From the NCBI GenBank assembly GCA_963667785.2, contig CAXXMU010000001.1:928001-992000 (forward strand): a DNA stretch of 64,000 bases, read 5' to 3'. Positions 14,401-38,520 of this stretch are shown in pieces. A program made the translations under genes and the position numbers. Below the pieces are notes generated by a model, which was not told where the DNA came from, made no database searches, and saw nothing but the letters and a program-made list of their open reading frames with translations. How positions within the stretch are numbered: position 1 is the first letter of the stretch; each line of letters begins with the position of its first letter. This stretch comes from Alphaproteobacteria bacterium. Its GTDB lineage: Bacteria; Pseudomonadota; Alphaproteobacteria; UBA828.

Positions 14401-16437
14401 TACAAACTCAACTTGGTTTTCCAGCGGCCGGGTGGCCAGTTCCAGACCTGCGAGGTGTTCGCGAAACGCGGCATGGCAGAACGCGAGCTCCTCCGGCCCA
14501 CGCTCGACGAGGAGGCCCGACGTGTCCGCATCGACGTCCGTCAGTTCCCGCGCCCCAACACGGGCTTTCTCCTTCGCCCACCCGGGTCCAGTTTCCGAAT
14601 CAGCCAAGAAGCCCTCGATCACCCGCCGAGCTTCGTCGCGGTCGATCCCGGCGTCCGCGCCCCGTACGTGTACGTGGAACGCCAGCTTGGCTAAAGCGTC
14701 GATCCGAACGTCGTCGGCAGAGAAAATGGGCATTCGTGACTTCATTTCGGCGGCCGCCGTCGCACGCCGGTTGGGATGAACCTCCAGGAGAATCTCGATG
14801 AGTTTCTGGAGCAATTGGAATCGCGTGTTCGGCAGGATGATCTGGCGGGCCGCCACCGAGAGCATCCCGTGCAGAAGCAAGGGATTGCCTGCGAGCGACT
14901 GCAGCCGACCGCTATGCTCGAGCTGCTGGAAGAACTGCCGGACCCGAAGCGCCACGGGAGTCGCCGCGTTGTTATCCTCGCTCAGGAGCTTGGTCGCGAG
15001 GTCGCGCTGTTGGCGCCGCTGCAACTCCACCAGTCGCGCCGCCTTCCAGTACCCGCTTGTCGGCCCCAGACGCCGCAGCCCGGCAGGGCGCGCGGTCGCG
15101 ATGGTGAACACGTCGTGGGTGCGAACGAACGTCTCGATTGTGGCGAGTGTCGTCCTCGCGGCCTGCTCGTCGCTGTACTCGTCCAGACCGTCAATCAGAA
15201 GCACCAGTCTCTCGTCGGCCAGTGCTTCGATGAAGGAATCTTCCAGTTCTCTTTCGGGAACGAACGCCCGGAACGCTTCTCGGATCACCTCCGCCAACGC
15301 CACTTCGCGTTGCTCCTTCGCCGCGAGACGGCTCCAAAGTGCAAACGGGATGAGCAACGGTATGCGCACACCGAGCCGATCATGGACCGCAGGGAACAGT
15401 TCAGGGTTACGCACCAGATCAAGCGCGAGACACCGCAGAACCGTGCTCTTGCCGGAGCCGGGAGCGCCCGAAAGCAATAGCGCGCGCTCGCCCTGCAACA
15501 GCCAGTCGTCGAACGCAATTGGCGGTATCTCGGGCGGCTCGCTCGGGGTTCTGTCGAAGTGGGAGGGTTCCCTAGGATCGCTGTACTCGTCGAAATTCCA
15601 GGCATCGTCATCCTGTCCGCGCGCCTCGCCCGGCCAGTCCTCCGGCTCCAGCGACGGCACGAAGAACGGATTTGCCGGATCGACATCGGGGACCACGAAG
15701 CGCTTGCGAATGTCGCGTGTATCCCGCCGCGCCGGGTCAACATTCAACCCGGGGTCGAGTTGCTGGATCCGTGCCTCGAAGATCTCCGCCAGACGTCTCC
15801 GCAGTGCAATCACGCGTTGCACCTTTAGCGGCCGTTTTAGGCCCGCCGCGACATCCTCGCCGGCAAAGGCAACGAGCCAGCTTCGGCCGAAGAAGTCGTC
15901 GACGATCTCCGGATGGGACCTTAGCTTCTCGCTGAGTTGATTACCGTCGACACCTTCGAAGACGATACCTTTTTCAAGTAGCCGCGCGGCCTGTGTCTCG
16001 ATCGTGTCCTGCAGCGCGGTGTCCGCAAGGCTTGCTCGGACGCAAAACACGAAGCGCTCCGCCGACGCGATCCATTTGCCCTTGAGAAAGTCGTCGACAG
16101 CCTTCTCTATGTCGGACGCGGCCACGTCCTTCCAGTTCCTGGCCTGCCAACAGATATGTCCGCCGCCAGCCAGACGCGCATAAACGTCGATACCATGTTG
16201 AGCTTGACCGGATCGCCCATACCGCGCGCAGTAGACCACGTCGGAATTCTTGCGTGCCAAGCGGAACACAAGCCTTTCGAAGTCCTGCCACGAGAGTAGG
16301 TCGCAGGGCAATTCTGGGACCCGGGTCTCTACCGGGTGGGCTTCGACGACTGATTCCGGAAGCTCCGGGAAACAGACGGGGACCGTCGGGTCCCCTGAAG
16401 GCGCGATCGAATCCTGCAACCCTTGACTACCTTCCAA
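11500..16437 (-). CDS. Mrr/REase-like nuclease + NACHT NTPase + helical-repeat protein (NLR-like defence candidate)
   Basis: N-terminal WQDFERLV...YGRSGQAQHGIDV...WQAR; Walker A GAPGSGKST; Walker B LLIDGLDE; GNPLLL; FCHAAFREHLAG. Visibly lower GC; start codon uncertain (TTG). Confidence 0.88.
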   Translation of the reverse strand: MEGSQGLQDSIAPSGDPTVPVCFPELPESVVEAHPVETRVPELPCDLLSWQDFERLVFRLARKNSDVVYCARYGRSGQAQHGIDVYARLAGGGHICWQARNWKDVAASDIEKAVDDFLKGKWIASAERFVFCVRASLADTALQDTIETQAARLLEKGIVFEGVDGNQLSEKLRSHPEIVDDFFGRSWLVAFAGEDVAAGLKRPLKVQRVIALRRRLAEIFEARIQQLDPGLNVDPARRDTRDIRKRFVVPDVDPANPFFVPSLEPEDWPGEARGQDDDAWNFDEYSDPREPSHFDRTPSEPPEIPPIAFDDWLLQGERALLLSGAPGSGKSTVLRCLALDLVRNPELFPAVHDRLGVRIPLLIPFALWSRLAAKEQREVALAEVIREAFRAFVPERELEDSFIEALADERLVLLIDGLDEYSDEQAARTTLATIETFVRTHDVFTIATARPAGLRRLGPTSGYWKAARLVELQRRQQRDLATKLLSEDNNAATPVALRVRQFFQQLEHSGRLQSLAGNPLLLHGMLSVAARQIILPNTRFQLLQKLIEILLEVHPNRRATAAAEMKSRMPIFSADDVRIDALAKLAFHVHVRGADAGIDRDEARRVIEGFLADSETGPGWAKEKARVGARELTDVDADTSGLLVERGPEELAFCHAAFREHLAGLELATRPLENQVEFVSGHAGEPRWRGTILALLQSLKRRVDVERILEAIRDEQDGEPGSTDRRLLLADGAFATASVSGSVGRQAALDSLSRIETGTDDAEGIELLGLALDGPRAGPIGEAVVARLARWWPGVTEWQPDLYAQLGRWQPTEELAQTLQLALAGDRNQLAAAASLAKVFEGSRKISNRLKALAQESMNPWVTAAALDALSRGWPSVDGLEDWLHEAERSPSIQMRTVAALALYKRGRRGDEGRDTLLGTLGTRWSRYEGGLHAEIMDALVRDWADDGEFQDACWASVGRHGPQKYDIHYENARSMLMRLHREDSRVPRWVQQEIETRDHFPFRGTLPGDALLEPILSEHANVRSAAEAWFEEEKFSKHDFEAARLAVMLRSDAAKRTMLSRLADTEHYRFWPVWSLLHGWGIDDPEVATALDPLPRMPPEERQHIAHHVPAIVGSVDESFRLLMEICNLQEVLRTDFVIGGFAALGDEIDDGAAVSAILPHIRKSPAAYRGEGGLIARFHADPRVRAFALERLQEPSPPLVAMAGVYATDAEIVPLILQRAAPLPTVFRRYIARRASERFDDEALRKALQQCELETDEHAMIQATIGLSYSALATPGEAQERTEALRAQLHAVGPNYDDRRAAAFGGLLALGRIDVFAGAKEERDDQALRIDLVERFKDYAPVLELAAERWEEVETETAGSPLSRLSRWKDDPAGFWSAFAPYLSRSTRLKTRFLEYCEDDSVVLGVRGLVALSRLGPRSSLLLDCCKRALATEFDAQKQSPFDAAQTKVVASKCLAAHFSEDSSAVAAIVASSERLQSEGGALVGLVSRWPDHEIVVREYRNLVERQGRSGLLVCTQLWLLSAQGTREQIARAFAWFVTRPESSPWDFPEDVLEALRARLERDPEVEEILAQFARDNDEPSVRASTVRLLGSMSTKQSQDLAEELLSAECRRTGPPRFALDILTNRIRPARELMRDVLRRPSS

Positions 16438-24712: not shown

Positions 24713-25246
24713 ATGGCGACATTGCGATATGCGGGGATCGGGGCGCGGGCGACGCCGGCGGAAGTGCTGGCGGACATGGAAACGATGGCGGCATGGCTGG
24801 CGCGGACCGGCTGGCATCTGTCTAGCGGCGGGGCGGACGGAGCCGATGCTGCGCTCGCGGCGGGGGCGCCGGCCGGCCAGCGGACGGTGTGGCTGCCGTG
24901 GCGCGGGTACAACGGGCATCGCGGGCCGGACTGCCGGGTGCTGTCCGCGGCTGAGCTCTCGGCCTGTATCGAGATCGCCGCGCCCCTGCATCCGGCGTGG
25001 GAGCGGTGTTCGCCGGTCGTCCGCAAGCTGCATGCCCGGAACGCGGCGGTGCTCGGATTGACGCTGGACCGGCCGGTCGACGCGTGCGTGGCGTGGTCTC
25101 CGGACGGGCGCATCGAGGGCGGCACGGGCATGGCCATCCGCATCGCCGAGGCCCGTGGCATACCCGTGTTCAACCTGGGGACGATGACGCCGCGGGCCGT
25201 GTGCACGCGCCTGGCCGCGATCCGCCGCGCCGTATCGGGGTCCTAG
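24713..25246 (+). CDS. SLOG-superfamily (DprA/Smf-like) protein
   Basis: YAGIGARATP, LSSGGADGAD, GGTGMAIRIA...IPVFNL. Confidence 0.78.
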   Translation: MATLRYAGIGARATPAEVLADMETMAAWLARTGWHLSSGGADGADAALAAGAPAGQRTVWLPWRGYNGHRGPDCRVLSAAELSACIEIAAPLHPAWERCSPVVRKLHARNAAVLGLTLDRPVDACVAWSPDGRIEGGTGMAIRIAEARGIPVFNLGTMTPRAVCTRLAAIRRAVSGS

Positions 25247-25346
25247 AGCAGGAGAAGAGCGCCTGTCGGGCCAGTGTCCGGCAGGCCGGAGGGAGCGGTC
25301 CCCCGCGCCGATGCCGGGCAGGGCAACGGCACGAGGAGACCCGCCC

Positions 25347-25565
25347 ATGTTGAATCCCCACTTCCGCCTGAGCGTCCCGCGCGGCGGCGACCTGCTCACC
25401 GAGCTGGGCATCGACCCGTCGACCGTCAGCCAGCTCGCCGAGGACGACCGTGCGATCCGCTGTCCCGACCGGGGCGCGGTGTATCCCGAGCGCAGCTTCG
25501 CGAGCCTCTTCCCGGAACCGCCGCCGGACCGCGGTCTGCATGCGGCCGGACCCGACGAGCCCTAG
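25347..25565 (+). CDS. small hypothetical protein
   Basis: GAGGAG RBS; in the run of plus-strand genes. Confidence 0.5.
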   Translation: MLNPHFRLSVPRGGDLLTELGIDPSTVSQLAEDDRAIRCPDRGAVYPERSFASLFPEPPPDRGLHAAGPDEP

Positions 25566-25706
25566 GACCCGGCTCCGGCGCGCCGTCCGGCAGGCAGGAG
25601 GTGGAGGAGGGCTTGAAGAGATTGAACGGAAGGGGGCCGGGGAGGAAGACCCGGCCTCCGGCCGTTCGGAACCATCGTCATCAACCAGGAACCACAGGAG
25701 ACCGTC

Positions 25707-26156
25707 ATGGCCTTCGGAAAGAACTTCGCGGAACTGATCGGCCGGCTCGGCGCCGACGCCAGCATCAACCATCTCCCCAACGGCGGGCGGGTCGCGAACC
25801 TGAACGTCGCGACCGACGAGAGCTACATCGACCGCCAGACCGGCGAGCGGAAGGACCGCACCGAGTGGCACCGGGTCGTCACCTTCCAGGACGGGCTGGT
25901 CGGCATGCTCGAGAAGAACGCCAAGAAGGGCCGGCTCATCCACGTCCAGGGCAAGCTCCAGACCCGCAAGTGGCGCAAGCCGGGCGAGGATTTCGACCGC
26001 TTCTCGACCGAGATCATCGTCGTCCCCGGCCACAGGGTGCAGTTCTACGACAAGCCCAAGGGCAACGACGCCACGGCCGCGGACGCCCAGCCGCCGATGG
26101 ACGAGACCGCCGCGCCGGCGACCGGCGCCGCGGACATCGAGGATCCGCCCTTCTAG
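25707..26156 (+). CDS. ssb: single-stranded DNA-binding protein (leading-region copy)
   Basis: LIGRLGAD, NVATDESY, TEWHRVV, QGKLQTRKW, acidic tip IEDPPF. Confidence 0.95.
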   Translation: MAFGKNFAELIGRLGADASINHLPNGGRVANLNVATDESYIDRQTGERKDRTEWHRVVTFQDGLVGMLEKNAKKGRLIHVQGKLQTRKWRKPGEDFDRFSTEIIVVPGHRVQFYDKPKGNDATAADAQPPMDETAAPATGAADIEDPPF

Positions 26157-26185
26157 GCCGCCTCTCATCGCTTCCTCCCTCCCTC

Positions 26186-26219
26186 GGGGGCCGGCGCTCC
26201 GCGCCGGTCCCCATTTTTT
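26186..26219 (+). terminator. intrinsic terminator after ssb
   Basis: GGGGGCCGGCGC-TCC-GCGCCGGTCCCC stem followed by ATTTTTT. Confidence 0.75.
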
Positions 26220-26327
26220 CTGTAGCCGGGCCGGAGTCCTTCCTCCCCATCCCGGCGCCATCCGTCTCCGCCGCCGGAGGTAAAGCGGAGCTTTTACGGG
26301 GCGTTCGCATTTGCGAGGAGAGAGAGC

Positions 26328-26897
26328 ATGTCCCGCGACACCGAGAGCGTCTTCGCCCAGGGGGCGGTCATCGTCCCCGATTTCGTCACCCCGGCCGAGG
26401 AGGAGCGCATCCTGCTGCGCATCGCCCAGGCGCCCTGGATGACCGAGCTCCGCCGCCGCGTGCAGCACTACGGCTACCGCTACAGCTACACCGGCACGAG
26501 CCGCCCGGAACCCGCCGCGCCGTTCCCGCGCTGGGCCGCCGTCATGGCGGATCGGCTGCGGCCGCACTTCGACGGCGCGCTGCCGGTGCAGTGCATCGTC
26601 AACGAGTACCGCCCCGGCCAGGGGATCGGCATGCACGCCGACCATGCGGATTTCGGGCCCGTCGTCGCCTCGCTGTCGCTCGCCGCCGACTGGCCAATGC
26701 GCTTCCGCCCGCGCTCCGTCCGCCCCTACGCCCGCGACGGACTGCCGGGCGACGAGGTCGCGGTGCTCCCGCGCCGCTCGGTCCTCGTCCTCGCGGGCCG
26801 CGCACGCTCGGCGTGGATGCACGGCATCGACTGCGCCGACACCGCCGGGGAGACCGCGACGCGCCTCTCCGCCACCTTCCGCACCCTCGCGCGGTAG
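26328..26897 (+). CDS. AlkB-family 2OG-Fe(II) dioxygenase
   Basis: RRVQHYGYRY, NEYRPGQGIGMHAD (HxD), WMHGI, RLSATFR. Confidence 0.9.
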   Translation: MSRDTESVFAQGAVIVPDFVTPAEEERILLRIAQAPWMTELRRRVQHYGYRYSYTGTSRPEPAAPFPRWAAVMADRLRPHFDGALPVQCIVNEYRPGQGIGMHADHADFGPVVASLSLAADWPMRFRPRSVRPYARDGLPGDEVAVLPRRSVLVLAGRARSAWMHGIDCADTAGETATRLSATFRTLAR

Positions 26898-26953
26898 CGC
26901 TCGGGCGTCCGCCGCCGGCCCTTCTTCGATCTTCCCGCCACAGGAGCTGCGCC

Positions 26954-27409
26954 ATGATCCGTTTCGTCCAGGGCGACCTCTTCGCCTCCGGCTGCGAGGC
27001 CCTCGTCAATCCCGTCAACTGCATCGGCGTCATGGGCAAGGGCCTCGCCCTCCAGTTCCGCCGCCGCTTCCCGGCCAACTATGAGGCCTACCGCAACGCC
27101 TGCGCGCGCCGCGAGCTCCGCCCCGGGCGCTGCTTCGTCTTCGACGCCGGCGCCGGGAGCCCGCGCTTCGTCGTCAACTTCCCGACCAAGCGCCACTGGC
27201 GCGACCGCAGCCGCATCGCGGATATCGCCGCCGGCCTCGACGACCTCGCCGGCATCCTCGATCGCCACGCCATCCCCTCCGTCGCGGTCCCGCCGCTCGG
27301 CTGCGGCCTGGGCGGTTTGCCCTGGCCTGCCGTGCGCTCCCTGTTGCTCGACCGCCTTGCGCCCTGCGAGGCCGTCTCGATCGTCATCCACGAGCCTTGC
27401 CGCCGGTAG
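26954..27409 (+). CDS. stand-alone DarG-like macrodomain (ADP-ribosylhydrolase)
   Basis: GDLF, ALVNPVNCIGVMGKGLALQF, NFPTKRHWR, PPLGCGLGGLPW; AGGAG RBS. Confidence 0.9.
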   Translation: MIRFVQGDLFASGCEALVNPVNCIGVMGKGLALQFRRRFPANYEAYRNACARRELRPGRCFVFDAGAGSPRFVVNFPTKRHWRDRSRIADIAAGLDDLAGILDRHAIPSVAVPPLGCGLGGLPWPAVRSLLLDRLAPCEAVSIVIHEPCRR

Positions 27410-27577
27410 CGCCGGGCGGCTTCCCGCCGTCCCGGCCTCGCGCCCGCGCTCCGCTCGGGGCGCTCGGTTGTCGGCTCCGCCAGGAGGCGGAGGCCGGCCG
27501 GTATCGGGGCGTCCCGTCGGACCCCGGAGGAATCCCGCCATGCCGAGACCGTTCCACCCTTCCGCAGGAGACGCACC

Positions 27578-28576
27578 GTGAACGCGGCCGCTATCGCCGC
27601 CGCCCTCAGCGAACGCGCCGAGGCCGTCTGCCGGCAGTACCTGCCGCACGGCCGGCGCCAGGGCCGCTACTGGGTCGCGGGCGACCTCGACGGCGCCCGC
27701 GGCCGCTCGCTCTACGTCCGCCTCTCCGGCCCCGGCACGCCGGGGAAATGGACCGATGCCGCCGAGGGGACGCATGGCGACCTCCTCGACATCATCCGCC
27801 ATCGCACCCGCGCGCGGACGCTGCGCGCCGCGCTCGACGAGGCGCGCGCGTTCCTCGCCTTGCCCGCTGCGCGGGCGACGGCATCGGACGCACCCTACGA
27901 CGCCACCGAAGCGGCACGCCGCCTGTGGCGGCGCTGCCGCGCCATCGACGGCACCCATGCGGAAGCCTATCTGCGCGCACGGGGTCTCGCGCGCTGCCGC
28001 TTCGCGGCGCTGCGTTTCCACCCCGAGCTTCGCTACCGCGAAGGCTCGACCGTCATCCGCCTGCCGGCGCTGGTCGCCGCCGTGACCGGCAGCGACGGCG
28101 CCATCACCGGCGTGCAGCGCACCTGGCTCGATCCCCGCTCGCCCGCCAAGGCGGGCATCGCGAGCCCTCGCAAGGCGCTCGGCCGCGTCTACGGGCACGC
28201 CGTCAGGTTCGGACGCCCCGCCGACGGAGCTTCGCTCCTCGTCGGCGAGGGCATCGAGACGGTGCTCTCGCTCGTCACCGCCGTACCCGCGATCGACGCC
28301 GCCGCGGCGCTCTCCGCCGGCAGCCTCGGCGCCTTCGCGCCTCCGCCCGGCGTCGCGCGCCTCGTGATCGCGCGCGACAACGACGTCGAGGGCGAGCGGG
28401 CGGCCGAACGCCTCGCCCGGCGCTGCGCGCGGGCTCGCCTTGCCGCACTCGTCATCGTGCCCAAGGGCGAGGACTTCAACGACGACCTCGTTGCACTTGG
28501 CCGCGACGCGCTCGCCGCGCGCCTCGCGCCGCTCTTCGGCGCCGGCACGCGCGAGAGTGAGAGAGCTTCCGCATGA
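27578..28576 (+). CDS. Toprim-domain (primase-like) protein
   Basis: GKWTDAA...GDLLD, AEAYLRARG, GVQRTWL, VGEGIETVLS, IARDND, DFNDDL. Confidence 0.88.
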   Translation: MNAAAIAAALSERAEAVCRQYLPHGRRQGRYWVAGDLDGARGRSLYVRLSGPGTPGKWTDAAEGTHGDLLDIIRHRTRARTLRAALDEARAFLALPAARATASDAPYDATEAARRLWRRCRAIDGTHAEAYLRARGLARCRFAALRFHPELRYREGSTVIRLPALVAAVTGSDGAITGVQRTWLDPRSPAKAGIASPRKALGRVYGHAVRFGRPADGASLLVGEGIETVLSLVTAVPAIDAAAALSAGSLGAFAPPPGVARLVIARDNDVEGERAAERLARRCARARLAALVIVPKGEDFNDDLVALGRDALAARLAPLFGAGTRESERASA

Positions 28577-28604
28577 GGGCAGGATCAGCCCGGGGAGAGA
28601 GAGC

Positions 28605-29462
28605 ATGGCCCGCATCGTGAACCTGAAGCACGAGCCCGATGCCGTCGCACGCGGCGCGGTACGCATCGACCGCCGCACGAGGTGGGGCAATCCCTATCGG
28701 ATAGGCGCCCATGGATCGCGCGACCAGGTGATCGCGCGCTACCGCGCGCACCTCTGGCGGCGCATCCGCGCGGGCGAAATCGCCCTTGCGGATCTCGCCG
28801 CCTTGGAATCCCGCCCCCTGGCGTGTCATTGCTGGCCCGCCCGGTGCCATGGCGAAGTGCTCGCCCGCGCGGCGGCCTGGGCCGCCGCCGAGCTTCGCCG
28901 CCGTGCCGCATGCGACCAGCCCATTCTGTTCTGGTCGCGCTGCCCGGAGTGGGGGTGGCTGTCGAACTTCGCCGCCGCCGGCTTCGCCGGTCCCGGCGGC
29001 GCGATCTGGCCGACCGTCGAGCACTGGTACCAGGCCGGCAAGGCCGCCGACCCGGCAACGGCCGAGCGCATCCGCCGCGCGGCGACGGCGCGCGAGGCGC
29101 AACGCCTCGGACGCGCCGTCCGCTGCCGCGACGGCTGGGAGGACGCGAAGCTCGCGCGCATGGCCTCGGGCCTGCTGCTCCGCTTCGCTCCGCAGCGCCC
29201 CGACACCGCGCGGCTGCTCGCCACCGGCGAGCGCGCGCTCCGCCATGCGACGCCCTGGGGCGCGCACGGCGACCCCTTCTGGGGCATCGGCCGCGACGGC
29301 TCCGGCGCCAACCGGCTCGGCCGGATGATGGAGGGCATCCGCGCCGCGCGCCGCAACGGCGCGCCGCTCGATGCCGCCGCGCTCGCCGGGCGGGTCCGCT
29401 CATGGCGCCCTTCCGCTTCGCGGGAGGAAGAGGAGAGCAGGGGAGTGGGCAGGCCCGCATGA
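28605..29462 (+). CDS. DUF4326 - NADAR (YbiA-like) fusion protein
   Basis: N-half IDRRTRWGNPY...LACHCWPARCHGEVL (DUF4326); C-half WLSNF, WPTVEHWYQAGK, LLATG, DPFWGIG...GANRLGRMM (NADAR); no stop between them. Confidence 0.85.
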   Translation: MARIVNLKHEPDAVARGAVRIDRRTRWGNPYRIGAHGSRDQVIARYRAHLWRRIRAGEIALADLAALESRPLACHCWPARCHGEVLARAAAWAAAELRRRAACDQPILFWSRCPEWGWLSNFAAAGFAGPGGAIWPTVEHWYQAGKAADPATAERIRRAATAREAQRLGRAVRCRDGWEDAKLARMASGLLLRFAPQRPDTARLLATGERALRHATPWGAHGDPFWGIGRDGSGANRLGRMMEGIRAARRNGAPLDAAALAGRVRSWRPSASREEEESRGVGRPA

Positions 29463-29480
29463 AGAGAGGAGGGAGCGCCC

Positions 29481-29945
29481 ATGAACGCCGCCGCGAACCC
29501 GAGCACGATCCGGATGGCGCCCCGCTATGTCATCCGCACCATCGACGAGGACTGGATCGACCTCTTCGATCCGCCGTCGCGCATCGGCGAGAAACGCGCC
29601 GCGTGGGACGAAGCCCGGCGCCGCGTCCGCGAGCACCCCGAGCTCAAGACCGTCGTGCTCGCCCGCCACACCGGCGCCACGCTCTGGCAGAGCGACCCCG
29701 ACATCCCGGCGCGCTACGAGGTCCTCGCGGTCGACGAGACCGTGTTCCACGTCCTCGACACGGACCTGTCCGTCGCAGGCGACCTGATCTCCTCCCACAA
29801 GGAGAAGGACGACGCCTGGACCGCGTTCTACGAGGCCGTCAAGGAACCGGTGGGCAACGACATCATCGTGCTGCGCGACACCATCCCCGCCGAGACCGTC
29901 CTCGCGTCCTCCGACGAGGACCTCTACAGCACCGATGCGGCGTGA
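29481..29945 (+). CDS. hypothetical protein
   Basis: Strong purine-rich RBS, typical codon usage. Confidence 0.7.
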   Translation: MNAAANPSTIRMAPRYVIRTIDEDWIDLFDPPSRIGEKRAAWDEARRRVREHPELKTVVLARHTGATLWQSDPDIPARYEVLAVDETVFHVLDTDLSVAGDLISSHKEKDDAWTAFYEAVKEPVGNDIIVLRDTIPAETVLASSDEDLYSTDAA

Positions 29946-29971
29946 GGGCGGTGCCGCTTCCAAAGGAAGGG

Positions 29972-30087
29972 TTGGGCGCGTCGCTTCGCGACCGGGCTAC
30001 CCTGTCGAGCCCGCTGCGCGGTCTCGCCCCTGCGGGCGGGTATCCCTCGCGCCTCCGCTCGCAAGCTCGCTGCGCGCTCCGCTTGCC
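29972..30087. repeat. structured ~116 bp direct repeat, copy 1
   Basis: Nearly identical to 31854-31970; chain of mini-hairpins. Confidence 0.9.
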
Positions 30088-30568
30088 AAGGGGGCATACA
30101 AAGCTGCCTCCCGCCGTGACTGCCCATTGTTCCACACGTGCTCGCTGCAGCAACCCTGCGGGTCCTCCGGTCGCTCCGCTCCCTGCGGCCTGGCCCAAGA
30201 ACCTCTAGGGCGGGCCGTGAAAGTCGCCGACCGTGAAGTTGGGCTTGCGAGAACTCCCCACCGCCTCGCGTGTGGCGCACCGGCCCCTGAAGCGCGGGGC
30301 CGGTGCGTCGGCCCGGCGCTCCCAGTCCTTGAGCAGGCCAACTCGAAACGCGGCCAACGCCTGCGACCCCGCGCCGGGCCTCCCTGAGCCGCACGACGCC
30401 CAACTTCCGCACCACTCGGCGACTTTCCGCACCAACCCCGCCCAAGAGGTTCTATGGCCAGGTGCTTCCGCTGCGCGCGCGTGAATCAACAGGCAGTCAC
30501 CACGGGGAGAGGCCCCGAGGACGAGCCGCAGACGGTTCGAGACACTCACTTCCTATCAGGAGAACGTC

Positions 30569-31585
30569 ATGCATGACATCGAACGCGCCGACACTTCCGA
30601 CACCACGATGGCCGACGCCTTCGCACGGGCCGGCTTCGACACCGACACCGTCATCGAGACCGCCGACGGCGGCGAGGACGACGGGCCGCGCGCGCAGTCC
30701 CAGACCGCCATCGCCTGTGAGCAGGCTGCCCTCTTCGGCACGACCCCGGAGCGCGACGAGCTCGACCCGCGCGACGTCTGGGACCAGGACGACGCCACCG
30801 ACGCGGTGAGCGAGGCGTTCCGCATCCTGGCCGAGGGTGTCGCACCGGACGGCTTCCAGCTCGCCGACGAGCGCGAGAGCCTGCTGTGGGGCTTCGTCAA
30901 CTGCCTCGACGCCCAGGTGCGCCGCCTCGACCGCGCCACCGACCGGCTGCTGCCCGAGATGCGCGACCTCGAGCGCGCCCAGGACGGCACCGAGGTGAAG
31001 TCGCGCGAGCTGGAGCTCATCACCGACCGGGCGCGGAACTTCGGCGACCGCCGCGACGCCTTCGAGACCATGCGCGACCTGGCCGCCGACGGCTACCGCG
31101 TCGAGACCGGCGAGGTCTGGCGCCCGCGTCACGGGTCCCACATTAGCCAGACCGGGCACCTCACCTCCGCCGCCATCGACGCCCGCGACTTCCAGCGCGC
31201 ACGCAAGGACCGCGAGACCAGGGCGCACCTGCCGCAGGGAACCCTCATCGCCATCGCGGGCGGGAAGGACGTCGCGGACCCCGCCGCCGTCATCGCCCGG
31301 CTTGACAAGGCCCGCGAGAAGTACGCCGACATGATCCTGGTGCACGGCGGCGGCCCCGGCGTCGAGCGGATCGCCGCGCAGTGGGCCGAGCGGAACGGGG
31401 TGCACCAGGTGGTGTGCAAGCCCGACTGGAACAAGCACAAGCGGGCCGCCCCCTTCCGCAGGAACGACGACCTGCTGAACCTCCTGCCGAAGGGCGTCAT
31501 CGCCTTCCCCGGTTCGGGCATCACCGACAACCTCGTCGACAAGGCGATCTCGATGGGCATTCCGGTCCAGCGCGTCGCGGCCTGA
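30569..31585 (+). CDS. DUF2493/YspA-like SLOG domain protein
   Basis: C-terminal IAIAGG, LVHGGGPGVERIAAQWA, PDWNKHKRAAPFRRND, IAFPGSGIT; AGGAG RBS. Confidence 0.85.
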   Translation: MHDIERADTSDTTMADAFARAGFDTDTVIETADGGEDDGPRAQSQTAIACEQAALFGTTPERDELDPRDVWDQDDATDAVSEAFRILAEGVAPDGFQLADERESLLWGFVNCLDAQVRRLDRATDRLLPEMRDLERAQDGTEVKSRELELITDRARNFGDRRDAFETMRDLAADGYRVETGEVWRPRHGSHISQTGHLTSAAIDARDFQRARKDRETRAHLPQGTLIAIAGGKDVADPAAVIARLDKAREKYADMILVHGGGPGVERIAAQWAERNGVHQVVCKPDWNKHKRAAPFRRNDDLLNLLPKGVIAFPGSGITDNLVDKAISMGIPVQRVAA

Positions 31586-31853: not shown

Positions 31854-31970
31854 TTGGGCGCGTCGCTTCGCGACCGGGCTACCCTGTCGAGCCCGCTTCG
31901 CGGTCTCGCCCCTTCGGGCGGGTATCCCTCGCGCCTCCGCTCCCTTCGGTCGCTGCGCGCTCCGCTTGCC
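31854..31970. repeat. structured ~116 bp direct repeat, copy 2
   Basis: Nearly identical to 29972-30087. Confidence 0.9.
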
Positions 31971-32407: not shown

Positions 32408-32436
32408 GGTTTTCACACCCGACGCATCGTTGATGC
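32408..32436 (-). other. putative oriT nic site (MOBF type), nick between 32415 and 32414
   Basis: Minus strand reads GCATC-AAC-GATGC-GTCGGGTGT^GAAAACC: a hairpin followed by TGCGTCGGGTGT^G, one mismatch from the F nic core TGCGTGGGGTGT^G; lies in the non-coding gap next to the relaxase module. Confidence 0.78.
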
Positions 32437-33018
32437 AGTACTCGCGGTGGCTGCTCATGTCCGCTATTGGCGGGCCATGCCCCGGCCCTGCGCTCCACTG
32501 TCCGCTCCTGTCCGCTCCTGGCGCGCCGGAAAACCTGCCACCGATTGGAGGCACCGAACGCTCGTGTCACACCGGAAAAACACGCCGTAACATCAAGGCG
32601 TTGGCGCCGCCGCCACCGATCGGTGGCAAAGCCTGTCGCAACAGTTCCCCGGCGCTGTCCTGCGTGCCTCCAAAAGGTGGCGCACCATCCAGGCCACACG
32701 GCGATGGCGCCCTTTCGCCGACCGCGCCTCCCGGCTTCCATCCCGCCGCCGATATTCCCCCCGCGCGGATCGGCCCCCGTCCGATTTGCACGGCGCCGCG
32801 AGGCCAATTCGCTCCGCCAACACTGCGCGCGGCGGGCGTCGAGCGCGCTCGAACGATAACGCCGCGCTCCGATGAGGACCCGTAATCGGCTGCGCCCCGT
32901 GCTTCGATGCCAGGCGCCGGGTCGCGGCAGGCACTGCCGTCCACCCGGCGCAGGCAGGGCCGGCAGCGAGGCGAGGGGCGGCGGCGGCCGGTTTCGACCG
33001 CCGGGCGCGGCCGGCGGC

Positions 33019-33381
33019 TCAGCCCGTGTCCCGGCGCTCGGGCCCGCCCGGGGCGCCGGCACCCTCCGGAGCCGCCCCTTCGGCGTCCGGGTCGGGCACG
33101 ATGGTGGAGATGAACGCGCGGATTTCCTCGACCTCCGCGCCGCGCCCGGCCGCGATGAGGCCGCGGGCGAGGACCTGCGCGGCGAACAGGGAGGCGCGTG
33201 CGACGCGCAGCTCGGCCACGTTCCGCGGGCCTTCCCGGCGGTCCAGCGCTTCCATCGCGAGCGTCATGACGAGCTGGTTGGCGCTGAGCGCGGTACCCTC
33301 GGCGGCCCGTTCGATCCGTTCCCACTCCCCGGGGCGCACGCGGACGTTCTTCTTCACGGTCCGTTCGATGGAGTCCGTCAT
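33019..33381 (-). CDS. ribbon-helix-helix protein, probable relaxosome accessory factor
   Basis: KKNVRVRPGEWERIERAAE...SANQLVMTLAMEAL fits the RHH pattern; AAGGA RBS; lies between relaxase and oriT. Confidence 0.65.
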   Translation of the reverse strand: MTDSIERTVKKNVRVRPGEWERIERAAEGTALSANQLVMTLAMEALDRREGPRNVAELRVARASLFAAQVLARGLIAAGRGAEVEEIRAFISTIVPDPDAEGAAPEGAGAPGGPERRDTG

Positions 33382-33467: not shown

Positions 33468-36455
33468 TCACAGCGCGAGCTCTCGGTCCGCGCCCTTCGG
33501 CGCCCGAACCGGCTCCGGTTCCGGCGACGATGCGCCCCCGCGCTCCCGCGACACCGTTGCGCCGGTCCCGCGATCCGCGCTCCTGCCCGCCTCCGCTCCG
33601 GCCTCTTGCCCCTTCGCGCGCTCCGGCTCGACCGCTTCCAGCGCCGCGATGCGCTCGCCGGTGGCGGCTTCGAGCTGCTCCTTCAGCGCCGCCCGGTCGT
33701 CGGTGACGAGCTCGGCCCGGTCGCGCGCGCGGGAGATCTCGACGTAGAACGACTTCTGCGTGGTGAGGTGGGGATGGTTGGCCTCCATCGCGGCGATCAC
33801 GGTGTCCACCGTTCGGCCCTGGAACGCATGCACGGTGGAGGCCCAGGCGCGGTCGAGGTGGCGGAGCTGCGGATCGCCGGGGGCGAGGTCGAGCATGCGT
33901 CCGTCCTCGAGACGGAACGTCACCCGGCCGTCTCCGACCGCCTCGACCTCGGCGGTGCCGCTGTTGACGAGGCCGAGGCCGGCATCGTTGCGCGTCCAGC
34001 GGATGCGGTCGCCGGCGCGCAGTTCGATCTCCTCGCTCCGGTACACCTCGACGCCGCCCGCGCGCGCCGCGATCCGGTTGGGCTCCCAGGCGACGGAACG
34101 CCCGTCCGCACCCTCCAGGTTCACCGTCCGCGTCTTGCGGTCGACGCCCGCGACGCGCAGCTCGTCGCCCTTGTCGACCCCGAGGCGCTTGTAGGAGCGG
34201 TGGAAGGCAACCACGTCGCCCGGCATGTAGTTCGCCGCGAGGGTCTTCTCGGCACTGGTATAGCCGCGCGAGACGAGCCGCTCCGCCGTCATCGCGGGGC
34301 CGTGCACCGCGCCGTCGCGCACCAGGCGTTCGCGGACGATGTCGTTGATGCGCTCGCGCAGGCCGTGGCTCGGCGCCATCAGTCCGGCCTTGGCGCGTTC
34401 CTCCGGCGAGAGCGCGAGCCAGCGCGCAGCCGCCGCACCGGGGAGGTTGTCGGGCTTCACCTCTGCGACATTCTCCCCGAGCTTGTCGAAGGCGCGCGCG
34501 ACGTCGCCGGCGAGGCTCGCCTCGACGGCCTCCTTCAGCGCCGGGTCGCGCTGGCGCATGATCTCGTCCATGACGGCGGTCGGCATCCCCGCCTTCTGGA
34601 GCTGCGCGAACGGCTTTCCTGCATCCACCGCGTCGAGCTGCTTCGCATCGCCCACCAGCACCACGCGCGGGATGCGGAGCGCGTCCGCGATCCGGAGCAG
34701 GTTCCTTGCCTGCACCGTGGAGGCGAGCGAGCCCTCGTCGACCACCAGCGCGGTCTTCGCGAAAGCGCTGCGCATCTCCTTCTCGCCCTTCCGAGTCATG
34801 CGCCCTTCGGCGACCCCGGCGTAGCGGGCGAGGAAGCGCTGCAGGGTCTCGCTGCCGATCCCCGCCTCGCCCTCCAGCGTGCGCGCAGCCGAGGCCGAGG
34901 GCGCGAGGCCCCGGACCTCGTAGCCCTTCTTCTCCAGGAGCCCACGGGCACGCCTCAGCATGGTGGTCTTGCCCGTCCCGGCGTAGCCCTGGACGCCCAC
35001 CGTGCGGTCCCTGGCGGACAGGATCAGCTTCACCGCCTCCTTCTGCCCGGCGGTGAGGGGACCGCCCCTGAGCGCCTTGTCGACGGCGCGGGCACGCATC
35101 GGGGCGGCGCCGCGGCGCTCGCCCGCCCGCATCAGCGCGACCGTCTCGCGCTCGTCGGCCACCGCCCGGTCGGTGGTGAGCAGCCCCTCGGCGCCCGGCA
35201 GGCGGGCGGCATGCAGCGTGCCGGCCTTCTCGCAGGCCGCGACTTCGCGCTCGATGTCGCCGATCCGCGCCGCGCCGGGGTTCCAGGCGAGCGCGGCGGC
35301 GAGCAGATCGGTGCGCGCGAACACCGCCTCGCGCTCCGACAGATGCGCCACCGCCCATTCGACGGCCCGCGATGCCAGCGATATCGGCACGTTCTCCCGA
35401 GCCGCGGGCTCCACTTCCACGGCACCGGCGCCGGGCATGGCGCCGTCCCCCGCCGCCGGACCGGGAGCCATTGTCCCTTCCGCATCCTTCCCCGCGTCCC
35501 GGCCGGCTTCCCTGGACAGCGCTTCCGCCGCGAGCCCCCTCGCGTCGAGCCCCATACCGGCGGCCTGCCGCTCCCAGCTCTCCCTGAGCGCGTCCCGGTC
35601 GACGTCGCGCTTGGCCGCGCGGGTCATCAGCGCCGCGCGCTGGGCAAGACGCTGATTCTCGGCGGTGTCCCCGCCGCCCCGCTCCGCCACCGCCGCCTCG
35701 ATCTCCGCGCGGCGGGTCGAGAACGCCTCCACGACCTCGCGGGACACGCCCGCGATCTCGAAGCGCCCGTCGGCGTGGGTCTTCTCGATGCCGTATCCGA
35801 GGCGGGAAAGGCCGGCCGCGAGCTCGCTGCGGTAGAGCGCGCCGAGCAGCATCTTCGATTCGTAGAGCTTCTCGTTCGCCATCGAGCGCCACTTGCCGGA
35901 CCGGGGTGTTCCCCCGTCCTCGCCCAGCACCATGTTGGCGATCACCGCATGGGTGTGCAGCGCCGGGTCGAGGTTGCGCGAGGTGTCGTGGCGGAAGGTG
36001 GCGATCACCGTCTTCTGGCCGCCGGTGCGGACCATGCGGCCGGTCCCAGAATCCTTCATGCGGGTCTGGGCCACGTTCTTCTCGAACCAGGCAAGCGTGC
36101 GCGCGACGGCCCGGTCGTGGGCGTCGATCACGCGGCCGTCGCCGCCGACCAGCGCCGCGAGCGAGACCGATTTGGGGGCCGAGAGGGTGAGGTCGCGGCC
36201 GGGGCGGTGCAGGATCTCGCCGTCCTTGCCGCGGCGGCCGAGCTCTGTGCCCGAGCCGTCCGGCACCTTTCCTTCGAGCACCGCGCGGAAGGTGTCGGGA
36301 TCCACCGGGCCGGTCAGCCCGAGCTCCTCCGCTCCCTTGCCCGCCCAGGCGCTCGCGTCGCGGTGCGCGGGATCGTCCTTGGCGTAGTAGCCGTCTCGCT
36401 CGTAGTAGTGCGCTCCCTGGGCCGGCGCGGCGACGGCCCCGATGGAAGCGACCAT
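33468..36455 (-). CDS. traI: MOBF (TrwC/TraI-type) conjugative relaxase-helicase
   Basis: HYYERDGYY, DLTLSAPKSVS, FRHDTSRNLDPALHTH, FSTRRAEI, QGYAGTGKT, FYVEISRAR. Confidence 0.95.
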   Translation of the reverse strand: MVASIGAVAAPAQGAHYYERDGYYAKDDPAHRDASAWAGKGAEELGLTGPVDPDTFRAVLEGKVPDGSGTELGRRGKDGEILHRPGRDLTLSAPKSVSLAALVGGDGRVIDAHDRAVARTLAWFEKNVAQTRMKDSGTGRMVRTGGQKTVIATFRHDTSRNLDPALHTHAVIANMVLGEDGGTPRSGKWRSMANEKLYESKMLLGALYRSELAAGLSRLGYGIEKTHADGRFEIAGVSREVVEAFSTRRAEIEAAVAERGGGDTAENQRLAQRAALMTRAAKRDVDRDALRESWERQAAGMGLDARGLAAEALSREAGRDAGKDAEGTMAPGPAAGDGAMPGAGAVEVEPAARENVPISLASRAVEWAVAHLSEREAVFARTDLLAAALAWNPGAARIGDIEREVAACEKAGTLHAARLPGAEGLLTTDRAVADERETVALMRAGERRGAAPMRARAVDKALRGGPLTAGQKEAVKLILSARDRTVGVQGYAGTGKTTMLRRARGLLEKKGYEVRGLAPSASAARTLEGEAGIGSETLQRFLARYAGVAEGRMTRKGEKEMRSAFAKTALVVDEGSLASTVQARNLLRIADALRIPRVVLVGDAKQLDAVDAGKPFAQLQKAGMPTAVMDEIMRQRDPALKEAVEASLAGDVARAFDKLGENVAEVKPDNLPGAAAARWLALSPEERAKAGLMAPSHGLRERINDIVRERLVRDGAVHGPAMTAERLVSRGYTSAEKTLAANYMPGDVVAFHRSYKRLGVDKGDELRVAGVDRKTRTVNLEGADGRSVAWEPNRIAARAGGVEVYRSEEIELRAGDRIRWTRNDAGLGLVNSGTAEVEAVGDGRVTFRLEDGRMLDLAPGDPQLRHLDRAWASTVHAFQGRTVDTVIAAMEANHPHLTTQKSFYVEISRARDRAELVTDDRAALKEQLEAATGERIAALEAVEPERAKGQEAGAEAGRSADRGTGATVSRERGGASSPEPEPVRAPKGADRELAL

Positions 36456-36456
36456 G

Positions 36457-38520
36457 TCAGATCGCGACGCCCGGCTCAGTGCCGGGCGCCGGGCCTTCCT
36501 CCGGCTTGCGGTCCTCGGTCTCCGATTCTCCGTCCGCGGAATCCCCGGCGCCTTCCGGCGCGTCCTCCGCTTCGCCGTCCGCGGCCTCGCCCGGCAGCGG
36601 CACCGGCTCCAGCCCCTCGTCCTTCGCCGGCGACGCGTCTTCCGGCTCCGCCACGGTTTCGCCCTGCAGCGCCGCGATCGCGATGCCGCTGTCCTCCGGG
36701 ACCGCCGATCCCGCTTCCGCGCGCGCCGCGCCGCCGCCCGCCGGTTCCGACCGGCCGTCGTCGCGCGGCACGAACCGCTCGGCCGCCTTCGGCCGGGCGA
36801 CGTAATTCAGGCGGATGGAGGCGACCGGGAAGGGGCCGGGGAACTTCAGATACCCCTCCAGGTTGGCCAGCCGCATGATCTCGGACGGCAGCGCCAGCGC
36901 CCGGAGCTCGCGGCGCGGCGTCAGGCTCACCCCGTCGCGGATGGTGTTGGCGCCGTATGAGAACCCCTCGGAGACCTCCTCGATCTCGCTGCGGCCCAGG
37001 CTGTCGGCCGACCACTGCGCGGTGTCCCGGTCGGGCGCGGCCAGCACCACGCGGGTGCCGCAAAGCCCGGAGATGGTCTCCGCGCCGTTCCGCCCGTAGA
37101 GGTCGCGCAACGCCGAGGCGACCTGCACGCCGAGCACGAAGCAGCCACCGAACTGGCGGCTTTCGGCGAGCCCCGGCTGAAGGCTCGGCACCTGGTGGAG
37201 CGTCGGCAGCTCGTCGAGGATGACCCAGATGCGCCTGTCCGGTCCTTGCGCGAGCGACAGCATCGCGTTGACCGCGATCTCCAGCCAGGTCGAGATCAGC
37301 CCGCGCAGGGACGCGTGCTGGTCGCCCCTCGACGTCAGGAACAGAAACGAGGGAACGCCTCGGTCCCCGTCCCGGTCCTCGTCGGAGATCCACTCCCGGA
37401 TCGAGAACGGCTTGCCTGTATCGGGCAGGAACTCCAGCGCCGACAGGTTGGCGGTCAGCATGGCGCGCACCGAGAGCGCGGTCTTGGGGTTCTCGGGATC
37501 GACGATGGACTGCGCCACCGTCCCTTCCATGGCTTGCGCGAGCGCCGTCAGGTCGGTCTTGAGCAGGTGATCGACCAGGACGCGGTTCTCGGTAATGCCC
37601 TTCCGGCGCAGCACGCCGGCGCCGTTGGAGAAGAGCTGGCGCGCCGCCGTCACCCAGAAGGGATCGACGGTGTCCTTCTGCTGCGGGATCAGCGCCGCGG
37701 CCATCATGTCGAAGTCGCGGGGGTTCCTCGCCTCCAGGAAGGGCGACCAGCGCGGCGCGCGGGCGTCCAGCGGGTTGAGCAGCACGTCGCGGTCCTCATC
37801 GAAGAAGGCGCGCGTGTAGCTCCCCATCTTGTCGTAGATCACGCAGCGCTCGCCGCGTTCGCGGATCTGCGACACCAGGTCGGAGATCAGCACCGTCTTG
37901 CCCGAGCCGGTGGTGCCCGAGACGATGGTGTGCTGGGTCTCCGTGCGCTCCGGATACGGGATGCCGGCGATCGCGTAGGGGCGGAAACGCCGACCGCCCG
38001 GAAGGACGCCCAGGAAGCGTTCATGGGGCGATTGCACCCTCCGGCGCAGCTCGCCGGCGGTGACCATCTCGGCGCCCCGGATGCGCTTCTGCCGGCCGAG
38101 CTGGGCGCCCCGCACCCAGAACACGACCAGGAACAGTCCGATCAGCCCGGCCCCGGCCATGGCCCCGAGCCCGGCGCTCGCGAACATCTCGGCCTTGATG
38201 CGCTCGCGCGCCTCCAGCGCCGGGACCGAGGCCGCGATCTCGCGGATCCGCAATACGCGCCGCGTGCCGTCGGCGAAGCGGATTTCCTGGCCCGAGTCCG
38301 GGTCGTAGCCGAGGACGAGCTTGACCTCGGCCAGCGTCACCATGCCCGCGGCGTACCACTCCGCCCCGGTGGTGCGGTGCCAGAGCGTCCAGGCGGGCAC
38401 GGCGACGGTGGTGAAGGCTGCGAACAGCATCGCGGCCCGGAACAGTTGTCCCCACATGCGGATCGCGTGGAAGACGGTCTGGCCGCCCCGGAGCGTGCTG
38501 CCGCCGATGCCCCGCATCAC
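36457..38520 (-). CDS. traD: type IV coupling protein
   Basis: Two N-terminal TM segments, GTTGSGKT, IYDKMG, ILDELPTL, ESRQFGG, LPSEIMRL. Confidence 0.93.
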   Translation of the reverse strand: MMRGIGGSTLRGGQTVFHAIRMWGQLFRAAMLFAAFTTVAVPAWTLWHRTTGAEWYAAGMVTLAEVKLVLGYDPDSGQEIRFADGTRRVLRIREIAASVPALEARERIKAEMFASAGLGAMAGAGLIGLFLVVFWVRGAQLGRQKRIRGAEMVTAGELRRRVQSPHERFLGVLPGGRRFRPYAIAGIPYPERTETQHTIVSGTTGSGKTVLISDLVSQIRERGERCVIYDKMGSYTRAFFDEDRDVLLNPLDARAPRWSPFLEARNPRDFDMMAAALIPQQKDTVDPFWVTAARQLFSNGAGVLRRKGITENRVLVDHLLKTDLTALAQAMEGTVAQSIVDPENPKTALSVRAMLTANLSALEFLPDTGKPFSIREWISDEDRDGDRGVPSFLFLTSRGDQHASLRGLISTWLEIAVNAMLSLAQGPDRRIWVILDELPTLHQVPSLQPGLAESRQFGGCFVLGVQVASALRDLYGRNGAETISGLCGTRVVLAAPDRDTAQWSADSLGRSEIEEVSEGFSYGANTIRDGVSLTPRRELRALALPSEIMRLANLEGYLKFPGPFPVASIRLNYVARPKAAERFVPRDDGRSEPAGGGAARAEAGSAVPEDSGIAIAALQGETVAEPEDASPAKDEGLEPVPLPGEAADGEAEDAPEGAGDSADGESETEDRKPEEGPAPGTEPGVAI

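Follow-up and report, generated by a model that had tools for sequence, protein, structure and literature searches.

What is a macrodomain resembling the one of the antitoxin DarG doing, with no toxin gene beside it, among genes for the handling of single-stranded DNA (ssDNA) and close to a predicted origin of conjugative transfer (oriT)? The question is raised by positions 24713–31585 of a 64,000-nucleotide stretch—hereafter the window—of the alphaproteobacterial contig CAXXMU010000001.1 (assembly GCA_963667785.2). The window holds an F-like conjugative element—its relaxase is of the TrwC type, a coupling protein is present and the secretion system is of the F type—and, since it lies within a large chromosomal contig, the element is integrated. 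Its relatives share a conserved ssDNA-establishment backbone and an accessory-cargo hotspot, where three base-adduct erasers—an AlkB-like oxygenase, a DarG-type macrodomain and a NADAR domain—travel together.

The G+C content of the window is ~72%, which makes raw lists of open reading frames (ORFs) misleading; the genes were placed by the third-position G+C content (GC3 frame plot), and the module proteins were searched with profiles against Pfam, PHROGs, PADLOC, NCBIfam and PDB. A preliminary description, made from the letters alone, had named a SLOG protein, ssb, AlkB, a macrodomain with an NFPTK motif, Toprim, a DUF4326-NADAR fusion and a DUF2493 SLOG protein, all pointing toward oriT. The profile and PDB searches bear this list out, each of the seven domain proteins that it names being found at 24713–31585, in a GC3-placed frame and on the plus strand (Table 1).

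The macrodomain and its two companion enzymes

Among PDB entries, the macrodomain is matched best by those of the DarG macrodomain, 5m31/5m3e with E 2.7e-46 and 5m3i with E 7.9e-42, whereas the entries of the TARG1/OARD1 type reach only ~1e-5. The identity to the Thermus DarG macrodomain entry is ~55% over 149 residues, and both the NFPTK(R/K)HW segment—the lysine of its NFPTK motif being the one we take to be the catalytic lysine of DarG—and the glycine-rich PLG-G-GG loop align with the DarG entries, so that the DarG type proposed from the motif holds. The likeness ends, however, halfway through the antitoxin. The PADLOC DarG model is matched (E 1.4e-65) over its positions 1–146 of 329 only and the NCBIfam model antitoxin_DarG (212.8 bits, under the cut-off of 250) over positions 1–149 of 338; the protein therefore corresponds to the catalytic half of DarG alone. 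Of the 80 DarG-type loci closest to it in species-representative genomes, which served as a control, 78 possess an extension of 126–221 aa past the macro domain, ~200 aa in nearly all of them, with one of the extended loci (L001) having a NADAR fusion in place of the DarG C-terminal part. DarT, described in Pfam as an ssDNA thymidine ADP-ribosyltransferase (PF14487), is located upstream of the ordinary DarG-type genes in 67 of the 79 ORFs tested. The same model gives no match at E ≤ 1 across the whole 4.09-Mb, 98.11%-complete genome or among the module ORFs, so the absence of a recognisable DarT, claimed earlier for the window, extends to its genome. Judged by its sequence, the macrodomain is of the DarG type and an orphan, its substrate probably being thymidine-linked ADP-ribose on ssDNA.

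Stand-alone relatives of this macrodomain fill 3,684 protein clusters at E ≤ 1e-20 (proteins of 83–265 aa), and the length of exactly 151 aa is found in over half of the 120 stand-alone clusters listed. In a quick tree only, all 11 element-borne macrodomains lie to the same side of one branch (SH-aLRT 94). Compared with the related locus L084, which has no macrodomain gene, the gene of the window stands out as a clean insertion/deletion difference of ~515 nt, i.e. an insertion in the window.

Concerning the NADAR part of the fusion protein (78.8 bits with PF08719, cut-off 35.1), it is nearer to E. coli YbiA (PDB 2b3w, E 2.5e-17) than to 8bau (E 3.3e-07), the other NADAR entry matched, and it scores 72.1 bits against TIGR02464, slightly under the cut-off of 73.7. 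The pairwise alignment carries an insertion at the place where the last-strand glutamate, the marker of the YbiA subfamily (PMC11125620), would fall. NADARs of several subfamilies, E. coli YbiA included, are reported to strip guanine-linked ADP-ribose in vitro (PMC11125620). The gene stands without a DarT1 operon, its neighbours being the Toprim gene and orf154, and there is no DarT-family match genome-wide.

The third enzyme, the AlkB-like oxygenase, matches PF13532 with 82.3 bits (cut-off 31.2), and its metal-binding HxD...H and 2-oxoglutarate (2OG)-binding R...R positions align with those of ALKBH8. The nearest PDB entries are ALKBH8 (3thp, E 6.3e-15) and ALKBH6 (7vjs, E 2.1e-11), the entries of E. 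coli AlkB giving merely E 0.004–0.01, and the scores against the NCBIfam AlkB equivalogs—24 bits against a cut-off of 267 for NF011930 and 19.7 against 231 for TIGR00568—do not indicate AlkB orthology. Of the AlkB dealkylase of the preliminary description, the superfamily thus stands and the specific enzyme does not; the name AlkB is to be read here as a superfamily assignment only.

Table 1 Features of the module and its surroundings, in window coordinates
Feature	Position	Strand	Support
Methyltransferase + Strawberry-notch-type helicase fusion (MTase-helicase), 1501 aa	18777..23282	+	AAA_34 E 5.9e-106, Helicase_C_4 E 4e-92, MTS weak
DprA-like SLOG-superfamily protein, 177 aa	24713..25246	+	phrog_768 'DprA-like DNA recombination-mediator' E 4.7e-47
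Small ORF (orf84), 84 aa	25311..25565	+	coding frame backed by GC3
Single-strand DNA-binding protein (SSB)	25707..26156	+	PF00436 E 1.5e-22
AlkB-superfamily 2OG/Fe(II) dioxygenase, 189 aa, accessory	26328..26897	+	2OG-FeII_Oxy_2 PF13532 E 7.2e-23
Stand-alone DarG-type macrodomain (Macro), 151 aa, accessory, cassette-like insertion	26954..27409	+	PF01661 E 8.6e-21
DUF7146 + Toprim primase-like protein, 332 aa, backbone	27578..28576	+	DUF7146 E 3.8e-34, Toprim_3 E 1.7e-22
DUF4326-NADAR fusion, 284 aa	28608..29462	+	DUF4326 E 2.3e-21, NADAR E 7.5e-22
Acidic two-repeat protein orf154	29481..29945	+	family-less
117-nt structured repeat, copy A, upstream of YAcAr gene	29972..30087	.	94% identical to copy B
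YAcAr (DUF2493) SLOG-domain protein, 338 aa, backbone	30569..31585	+	PF10686 E 1.7e-23 at aa 227-290
117-nt structured repeat, copy B, downstream of YAcAr gene	31854..31970	.	94% identical to copy A
F-like nic / relaxase-recognition block	32412..32426	-	12/15 match to F oriT site; predicted nic near 32415|32414
Three related inverted repeats, tra-proximal side of nic block	32537..32685	.	perfect 16-nt palindrome 32612-32627
NikA-like ribbon-helix-helix ORF	33019..33381	-	PF21983 E 0.0016, below cut-off
TrwC-type relaxase-helicase (MOBF)	33468..36455	-	PF08751 E 1.6e-84, AAA_30 E 1.7e-48
Type IV coupling protein (T4CP)	36457..38520	-	TrwB_AAD_bind E 3.5e-141

Related loci and the predicted transfer origin

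The module was compared in 81 loci, 79 of them anchored on the Toprim protein (65–89% identity), together with L001 and L002, homologues being counted by tblastn. The host labels of the metagenome-assembled genomes (MAGs) cover Alpha- and Gammaproteobacteria, Thermodesulfobacteriota, Binatia, Gemmatimonadetes, Acidobacteria and others. The element is also found in multiple copies, six loci being on OZ220712.1, five on OZ244869.1 and four on OZ245021.1; errors in the binning of MAGs cannot account for those copies that are found on whole-chromosome records. The distribution suggests an element family that is either of very broad host range or recently spreading.

Two classes of genes are evident in the survey. 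The backbone is formed by SSB, with homologues in 77 of the 81 loci, YAcAr (74), the MTase-helicase (52), DUF4326 (49, in 42 of which it is stand-alone) and the DprA-like protein (41). The erasers are less frequent—AlkB-like in 23 loci, Macro in 10 and NADAR in five, the last one being Pfam-confirmed in L001, L084, L096 and L119; a recheck of the tblastn count showed that L086, L106 and L091 have DUF4326 with unassigned extensions. Among the 70 complete loci, i.e. those with both flanking markers, 50 have no eraser, nine AlkB-like only, six Macro with AlkB-like, four NADAR with AlkB-like, and one (L001) all three. Both Macro (7/7) and NADAR (5/5) thus occur in complete loci only in the company of an AlkB-like gene. 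The place of Macro varies: it lies between the AlkB-like and Toprim genes in the window, L001, L082, L102 and L132, after DUF4326 in L083 and L085, and before the AlkB-like gene in L146, L151 and L154. Erasers are also found fused, as a 378-aa Macro-NADAR protein in L001 and as a 491-aa ORF with Macro and oxygenase domains in L146. Other slots of the family are occupied by RadC, SRAP, GmrSD_C-like proteins, parts of toxin-antitoxin systems, insertion sequence elements and unknown families.

These counts bear on two further claims of the preliminary description. It had proposed that the SLOG proteins may handle released nucleotides or ADP-ribose; YAcAr and the DprA-like protein are, however, backbone genes, and a part in ADP-ribose disposal finds no support because the SLOG genes are also present in the 50 complete loci without erasers. 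Co-occurrence near oriT in relatives, on the other hand, is seen for the nic block and for Macro and NADAR, which in complete loci always accompany an AlkB-like gene, while the erasers themselves turn out to be accessory.

Placing the module in the leading region was at first the least secure part of the picture, T4CP and TrwC being transcribed in the direction of the module; by analogy with F, oriT could then be expected at the opposite end of the tra genes. A scan for inverted repeats and a pairwise alignment of 31.5–33.5 kb with L001 yielded no clear oriT, and hairpins read by eye could not settle which strand is nicked, a point that was settled by comparison with F. A gap alignment of six loci revealed a single block conserved in all of them, at 0.8 kb past the last module gene, and 12 of its 15 bases in the window match the F oriT region where the F strand reads TTTGCGTGGGGTGTGGTGCTTT, between an SLT-domain gene and traM (chance expectation 0.06 per 3 kb). 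The matched F site is presumably the TraI site, nicked after GTGT, the exact position of nic in F being assumed here. The block is present with at most two mismatches in 44 of the 81 loci and on the opposite strand in none; among the 64 loci that reach far enough, 37 have it no more than 2.5 kb past the YAcAr gene, and in many relatives a 13-mer is identical to F (13/13). Moreover, L002, L148, L153, L157 and L158 exhibit the classical order, with a divergent TrwC after the module and on the same strand (Pfam-confirmed in L002).

The nick is thus predicted on the minus strand, with the tra genes on its 5' side and the module on its 3' side, which would make the module enter first; as all the module genes are on the plus strand, the transferred strand (T-strand) would be the template for every one of them. 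The position of the module on the leading, first-transferred side of oriT is therewith supported by likeness to F, and the placement within ~8 kb of nic given originally is in agreement with the 0.8–7.7 kb measured here. The inverted repeats next to the nic block, which have a counterpart in three hairpins at the homologous place of L084, are likely to be relaxosome binding sites. It should be noted that the NikA-like ORF, the L083 homologue of which is matched with E 4.5e-05, is inverted in the window, the 14 relatives with such an ORF all having it on the plus strand (e.g. L084:15001-15432), and that it abuts the 3' end of trwC here, several kb separating the two in the relatives.

Proposed adduct reversal on the entering strand and the alternatives

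The reading that we prefer, with a probability of roughly 55%, is that adducts on the incoming strand are reversed directly, the chief opponent being ADP-ribosyltransferases of the DarT type. After a nick on the minus strand at ~32.4 kb, the DNA to the left would enter the recipient first, single-stranded, and would serve as the template for all the genes of the block at 24.7–31.6 kb. Such a strand could not be repaired by excision, because it has no complement, and ssDNA is the natural substrate of DarT. The first layer of proteins would be the establishment backbone—the DprA-like ssDNA-binding mediator, SSB, the primase-like Toprim protein, DUF4326 and YAcAr—and the second, accessory layer would consist of three enzymes taking chemical groups directly off nucleic-acid bases, namely the AlkB-superfamily oxidase, the DarG catalytic half, acting on thymidine ADP-ribose in ssDNA, and the YbiA-type NADAR, acting on guanine ADP-ribose. 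The DarT-type enzymes that modify ssDNA would come from recipients or from rival elements. From the arrangement we infer the early expression of the block in recipients, the substrates of the enzymes and a limiting effect of DarT on conjugation. As for the opponent itself, DarT is found in five of 20 other genomes of the same genus and in six of 48 across the order, and complete DarT-DarG operons, adjoining CBASS-type genes, are present on two alphaproteobacterial conjugative plasmids.

Several points weigh against adduct reversal. Since 50 of the 70 complete loci do without any eraser, the erasers are dispensable for transfer, and the Fisher p-values for their co-occurrence are overstated because related elements are not independent. 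The nic assignment is drawn from sequence likeness to F, and TNTC sites on the predicted T-strand are not depleted (75, z +1.9), although their skew tracks the coding strand and the count is uninformative. A resident DarT is normally kept in check by its own DarG, and ALKBH8, the nearest relative of the AlkB-like oxygenase, is a tRNA-modifying enzyme. DarT occurs elsewhere in four of the five genomes that host Macro-bearing relatives, at least ~147 kb from the element in the three genomes where both share a contig, and this keeps alive a reading in which the macrodomain counters addiction or a host toxin. No report was found in the literature consulted of DarT acting on conjugating DNA or restricting conjugation; anti-DarTG is listed only in lytic phages in the consulted text of an anti-defence survey (PMC11370490), and DarTG was, as far as the consulted part of a Shewanella study goes, tested there only jointly with other systems. 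Finally, YbiA of E. coli does not relieve DarT1 toxicity in vivo (PMC11125620) and, the NADAR part being of the YbiA type, an anti-DarT1 role is possible but not safe to assume. The earlier claim of erasers for both DarT chemistries hence remains plausible for its thymidine half, carried by the DarG-type macrodomain, and is weakened for its guanine half.

The alternatives differ in where they place the substrate and the opponent. An action of Macro, NADAR, DUF4326 and SLOG on soluble NAD+/ADP-ribose molecules—cyclic ADP-ribose signals or toxic ADP-ribose (ADPr) phosphates—which would blunt e.g. Thoeris, is unlikely in our view, even though the four domain types are found together within 7 kb of the window, surveys predict the processing of ribose-linked phosphates of ADPr products (PMC9503650, PMC7824862), and SLOG domains of ThsA bind cyclic ADPR according to abstracts. 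The macrodomain is specifically of the DarG type, as seen from the gap between its DarG and TARG1/OARD1 matches, and DarG acts on DNA; its constant partner is a nucleic-acid oxidase of the AlkB superfamily, sometimes fused to Macro, with no role in soluble signalling. Moreover, YAcAr, the DprA-like protein and DUF4326 are present without Macro or NADAR as well, and the protein at 24713 matches DprA-like mediators acting on ssDNA. If the substrate is thus sought on the DNA, the damage could still be spontaneous or chemical and the erasers ordinary direct-reversal repair of an exposed strand, with no link to defence. The abundance of genes caring for ssDNA (those for SSB and the DprA-like and primase-like proteins in the window, those for RadC and SRAP in relatives) fits such a role, as does the fact that AlkB-type enzymes act on ssDNA lesions, where excision repair is impossible. 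DNA-base ADP-ribosylation is, however, not spontaneous: it needs a transferase, and the DarG-type macrodomain and NADAR therefore imply an enzymatic opponent. The patchy, cassette-like spread of Macro (10/81) and NADAR (5/81) also looks like conflict-driven cargo and not like housekeeping. Plain repair is a shade more doubtful than soluble substrates.

It is improbable, too, that the orphan macrodomain is an antitoxin, be it against an unrecognised toxin of the element itself (addiction) or, as anti-addiction—an idea discussed in PMC11825919—against a DarTG of the host or of a plasmid. The DarT genes in four of the five genomes with Macro-bearing relatives and the DarTG operons of conjugative plasmids speak for it, and so does the YbiA-YarT pair, in which the NADAR gene is directly upstream of the gene of an ADP-ribosyltransferase (ART) toxin (PMC11125620), orf154 being directly downstream of NADAR in the window. 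The genome of the window, however, has no DarT, and in general library scans no module ORF matches an ART family. Neither candidate for a hidden toxin finds support: orf154, acidic and built of repeats, gives no match to an ART-like fold (in a model of moderate confidence) and occurs without NADAR or Macro, and the N-terminal part of YAcAr is helical and not ART-like in a low-confidence model (pLDDT 59.8). A decaying and now functionless remnant of a DarTG operon, which the correspondence to the first half of DarG would allow, is very improbable. The ORF is intact, its catalytic-loop motifs are conserved, no DarT fragment adjoins it, its many stand-alone relatives share a preferred length, and the copies carried by elements cluster to one side of a branch and are fused to NADAR or to an AlkB-like domain in relatives.

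A wider form of adduct reversal, in which a widespread conjugative family carries at the start of its leading region a modular, sometimes fused, ssDNA adduct eraser cassette of AlkB-like, DarG-type macrodomain and NADAR parts, is tentative and falls somewhat short of even odds. If it is true, the enzymatic marking of incoming ssDNA by recipients or rivals—ADP-ribosylation, perhaps also alkyl-type marks—would be a real barrier to conjugation, and the 151-aa stand-alone DarG-like macrodomains would largely be counter-defence genes of mobile elements. The leading-region space spent on the DarG catalytic half, NADAR and the AlkB-like oxygenase would point indirectly to modified bases in the entering strand as a limit on horizontal gene transfer, with the prediction that transfer into DarTG-positive recipients should depend on the eraser genes. 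The short DarG-like macrodomain proteins, unnamed and numbering thousands, would thereby gain a role, as would the recurrent fusions of Macro, NADAR and AlkB-like parts. The backbone beside the F-like nic (MTase-helicase, DprA-like, SSB, Toprim, DUF4326 and YAcAr) could further serve as a landmark for leading regions and anti-defence cargo in integrated elements.

Known systems and the remaining features of the element

With the DarG of DarTG systems of the DarT2 type, known as anti-phage systems, the protein shares the macrodomain subfamily and the aligned NFPTK lysine motif. It differs in having 151 aa instead of ~330–340, in lacking both the C-terminal domain—the part that occludes DarT (PMC11481870)—and any adjacent or genomic DarT, and in being located in a conjugative leading region, not in a defence island. 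Phage orphan anti-DarT factors are alike in that an invader carries an antitoxin-like enzyme without the toxin; they include AdfN, an orphan NADAR of T4-like phages (PMC11825919), and a DarG2-like antitoxin of a chimallivirus (PMC13309987), whereas AdfB of ICP1 works by binding DarT and not by catalysis (PMC11481870). Here, the carrier is conjugative, two eraser chemistries are joined by the AlkB-like oxidase, and the NADAR is of the YbiA type and fused to DUF4326; only two of 223 phage records cover at least 80% of the macro protein, and the identity is below 60% in all.

Anti-defence islands of plasmid leading regions, in which orphan antitoxins were noted and genes have the T-strand as their template (Samuel et al. 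2024, PMC11541004), resemble the module in their oriT-adjacent, first-transferred position, in the template strand and in the presence of SSB and a methyltransferase, the differences being that the present element is chromosomally integrated and that its tra operon points toward oriT. The main text of that article has no relevant mention of macro, ADP-ribos, DarT, NADAR, AlkB or DprA, although its supplements may list such families. The SLOG/Macro/NADAR/DUF4326 networks described in PMC7824862 and PMC9503650 contain the same domains, including the DUF4326-NADAR type of fusion, but these surveys, in the parts consulted, deal with phages and giant viruses, with a preference for soluble substrates derived from ADPr, whereas the module joins a macrodomain of the DarG type to an AlkB-like partner and to genes for ssDNA establishment. 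From the YarT-YbiA pair (PMC11125620), which it resembles in having a YbiA-family NADAR with an uncharacterised gene directly downstream, it differs by an orf154 that is without ART features and occurs without NADAR in relatives. The F plasmid shares the nic core, the tra genes 5' and the SSB-bearing leading genes 3' of the nick, the MOBF relaxase and the F-type secretion system; in the window, however, T4CP and relaxase adjoin oriT and are transcribed toward it, and the leading genes are different, with no psiB or ardA family match in general Pfam scans of the module ORFs. Phage orphan anti-DarT erasers, plasmid leading-region anti-defence islands and the co-occurrence of the domains are thus already known, the new feature being the combination of the first two; the literature searches found no paper that puts a DarG-type gene or a NADAR gene into the leading region of a conjugative element, although supplements may list such families.

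Concerning the backbone proteins, the DprA-like protein at 24713 has no Pfam match and reaches only E 0.0059 with TIGR00732 (dprA). DprA belongs to SLOG by the naming used in abstracts (SMF/DprA-LOG), and the DprA-like family is described as an ssDNA-binding receptor (PMC7824862). The Toprim protein matches the DNA primase family phrog_510 (E 1.9e-38) and, in TIGR02760, a model of the long TraI relaxase, positions 1593–1870 (E 8e-19), so the domain may be fused to the relaxase in some elements; the TraI relaxase enters the recipient along with the DNA. The SLOG domain of YAcAr scores 82.6 bits with PF10686 (cut-off 28.2), and in the protein model long helices are located at 73–180. A YAcAr homologue is present in 728 plasmid records; plasmid records with it showed the trio of MTase-helicase, Toprim and DUF2493 but no informative oriT. 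To the left of the module are the MTase-helicase, a backbone gene of the leading arm, and DUF2958, and farther left genes for ParB-like, MoxR-like and DUF2201 proteins.

Two small proteins are without family. For orf84, a homologue of which is found in 15 of the 81 loci, there was no match in the Pfam, PADLOC, NCBIfam and PHROGs scans. The same scans gave none for orf154, whose best Atlas score of 0.78 revealed no relative and whose model (pLDDT 67.3) has no PDB fold match at E ≤ 0.001. It is strongly acidic, consists of two repeats of ~65 aa, is 55–87% identical across 12 relatives and has homologues in 16 of the 81 loci, including those without NADAR or Macro; by position and charge it is a candidate DNA-mimic or anti-defence protein.

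The 117-nt repeat flanking the YAcAr gene belongs to a family found in 24 of the 81 loci, with 18 copies upstream and 19 downstream of that gene, all in a single orientation (e.g. L084:12387-12533 and L084:14165-14311). Copies in relatives are 91–97% identical to those of the window, which is above the identity of the neighbouring coding sequence. A nested-hairpin structure written by hand has 92.3% of its positions paired and seven covarying pairs, its 3-nt loops having the sequence T-N-C when read on the plus strand and G-N-A on the minus one; the few one-sided changes are G-U-compatible on the plus strand, and the DNA fold z is −1.5 to −1.7 for the minus strand and ~0 for the plus strand. 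No Rfam family was matched at E ≤ 1 and RNAalifold gave fragments only. The repeat may be a single-strand promoter, a priming signal or an RNA element.

As to the element as a whole, no tRNA genes that could mark integration are present in the window, and the ends of the element were not found. Beyond T4CP, the genes of the F-type secretion system (TraG_N, TraH, TraF, TraN, TraW_N, TraC, TraK, TraE and TrbC_Ftype) continue to ~56 kb, and a second SSB gene (47098–47586, minus strand) lies inside this tra operon, adjoining a TraW-like gene. The leading arm contains a segment of lower G+C content (62–64%) with a NACHT/STAND-type NTPase of 1645 aa with C-terminal HEAT-like repeats (11500–16437, minus strand), which may be an inserted cargo gene of the defence type. 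Past the tra operon, a surface protein of 1962 aa with fn3/Calx-beta/SWM repeats is encoded at 58090–63978 on the minus strand; proteins combining Calx-beta or fn3 with an autotransporter domain are also located beside two related loci (L148:17936-20965 and L120:4422-7922), and a large adhesin may be a recurrent cargo of the element family.

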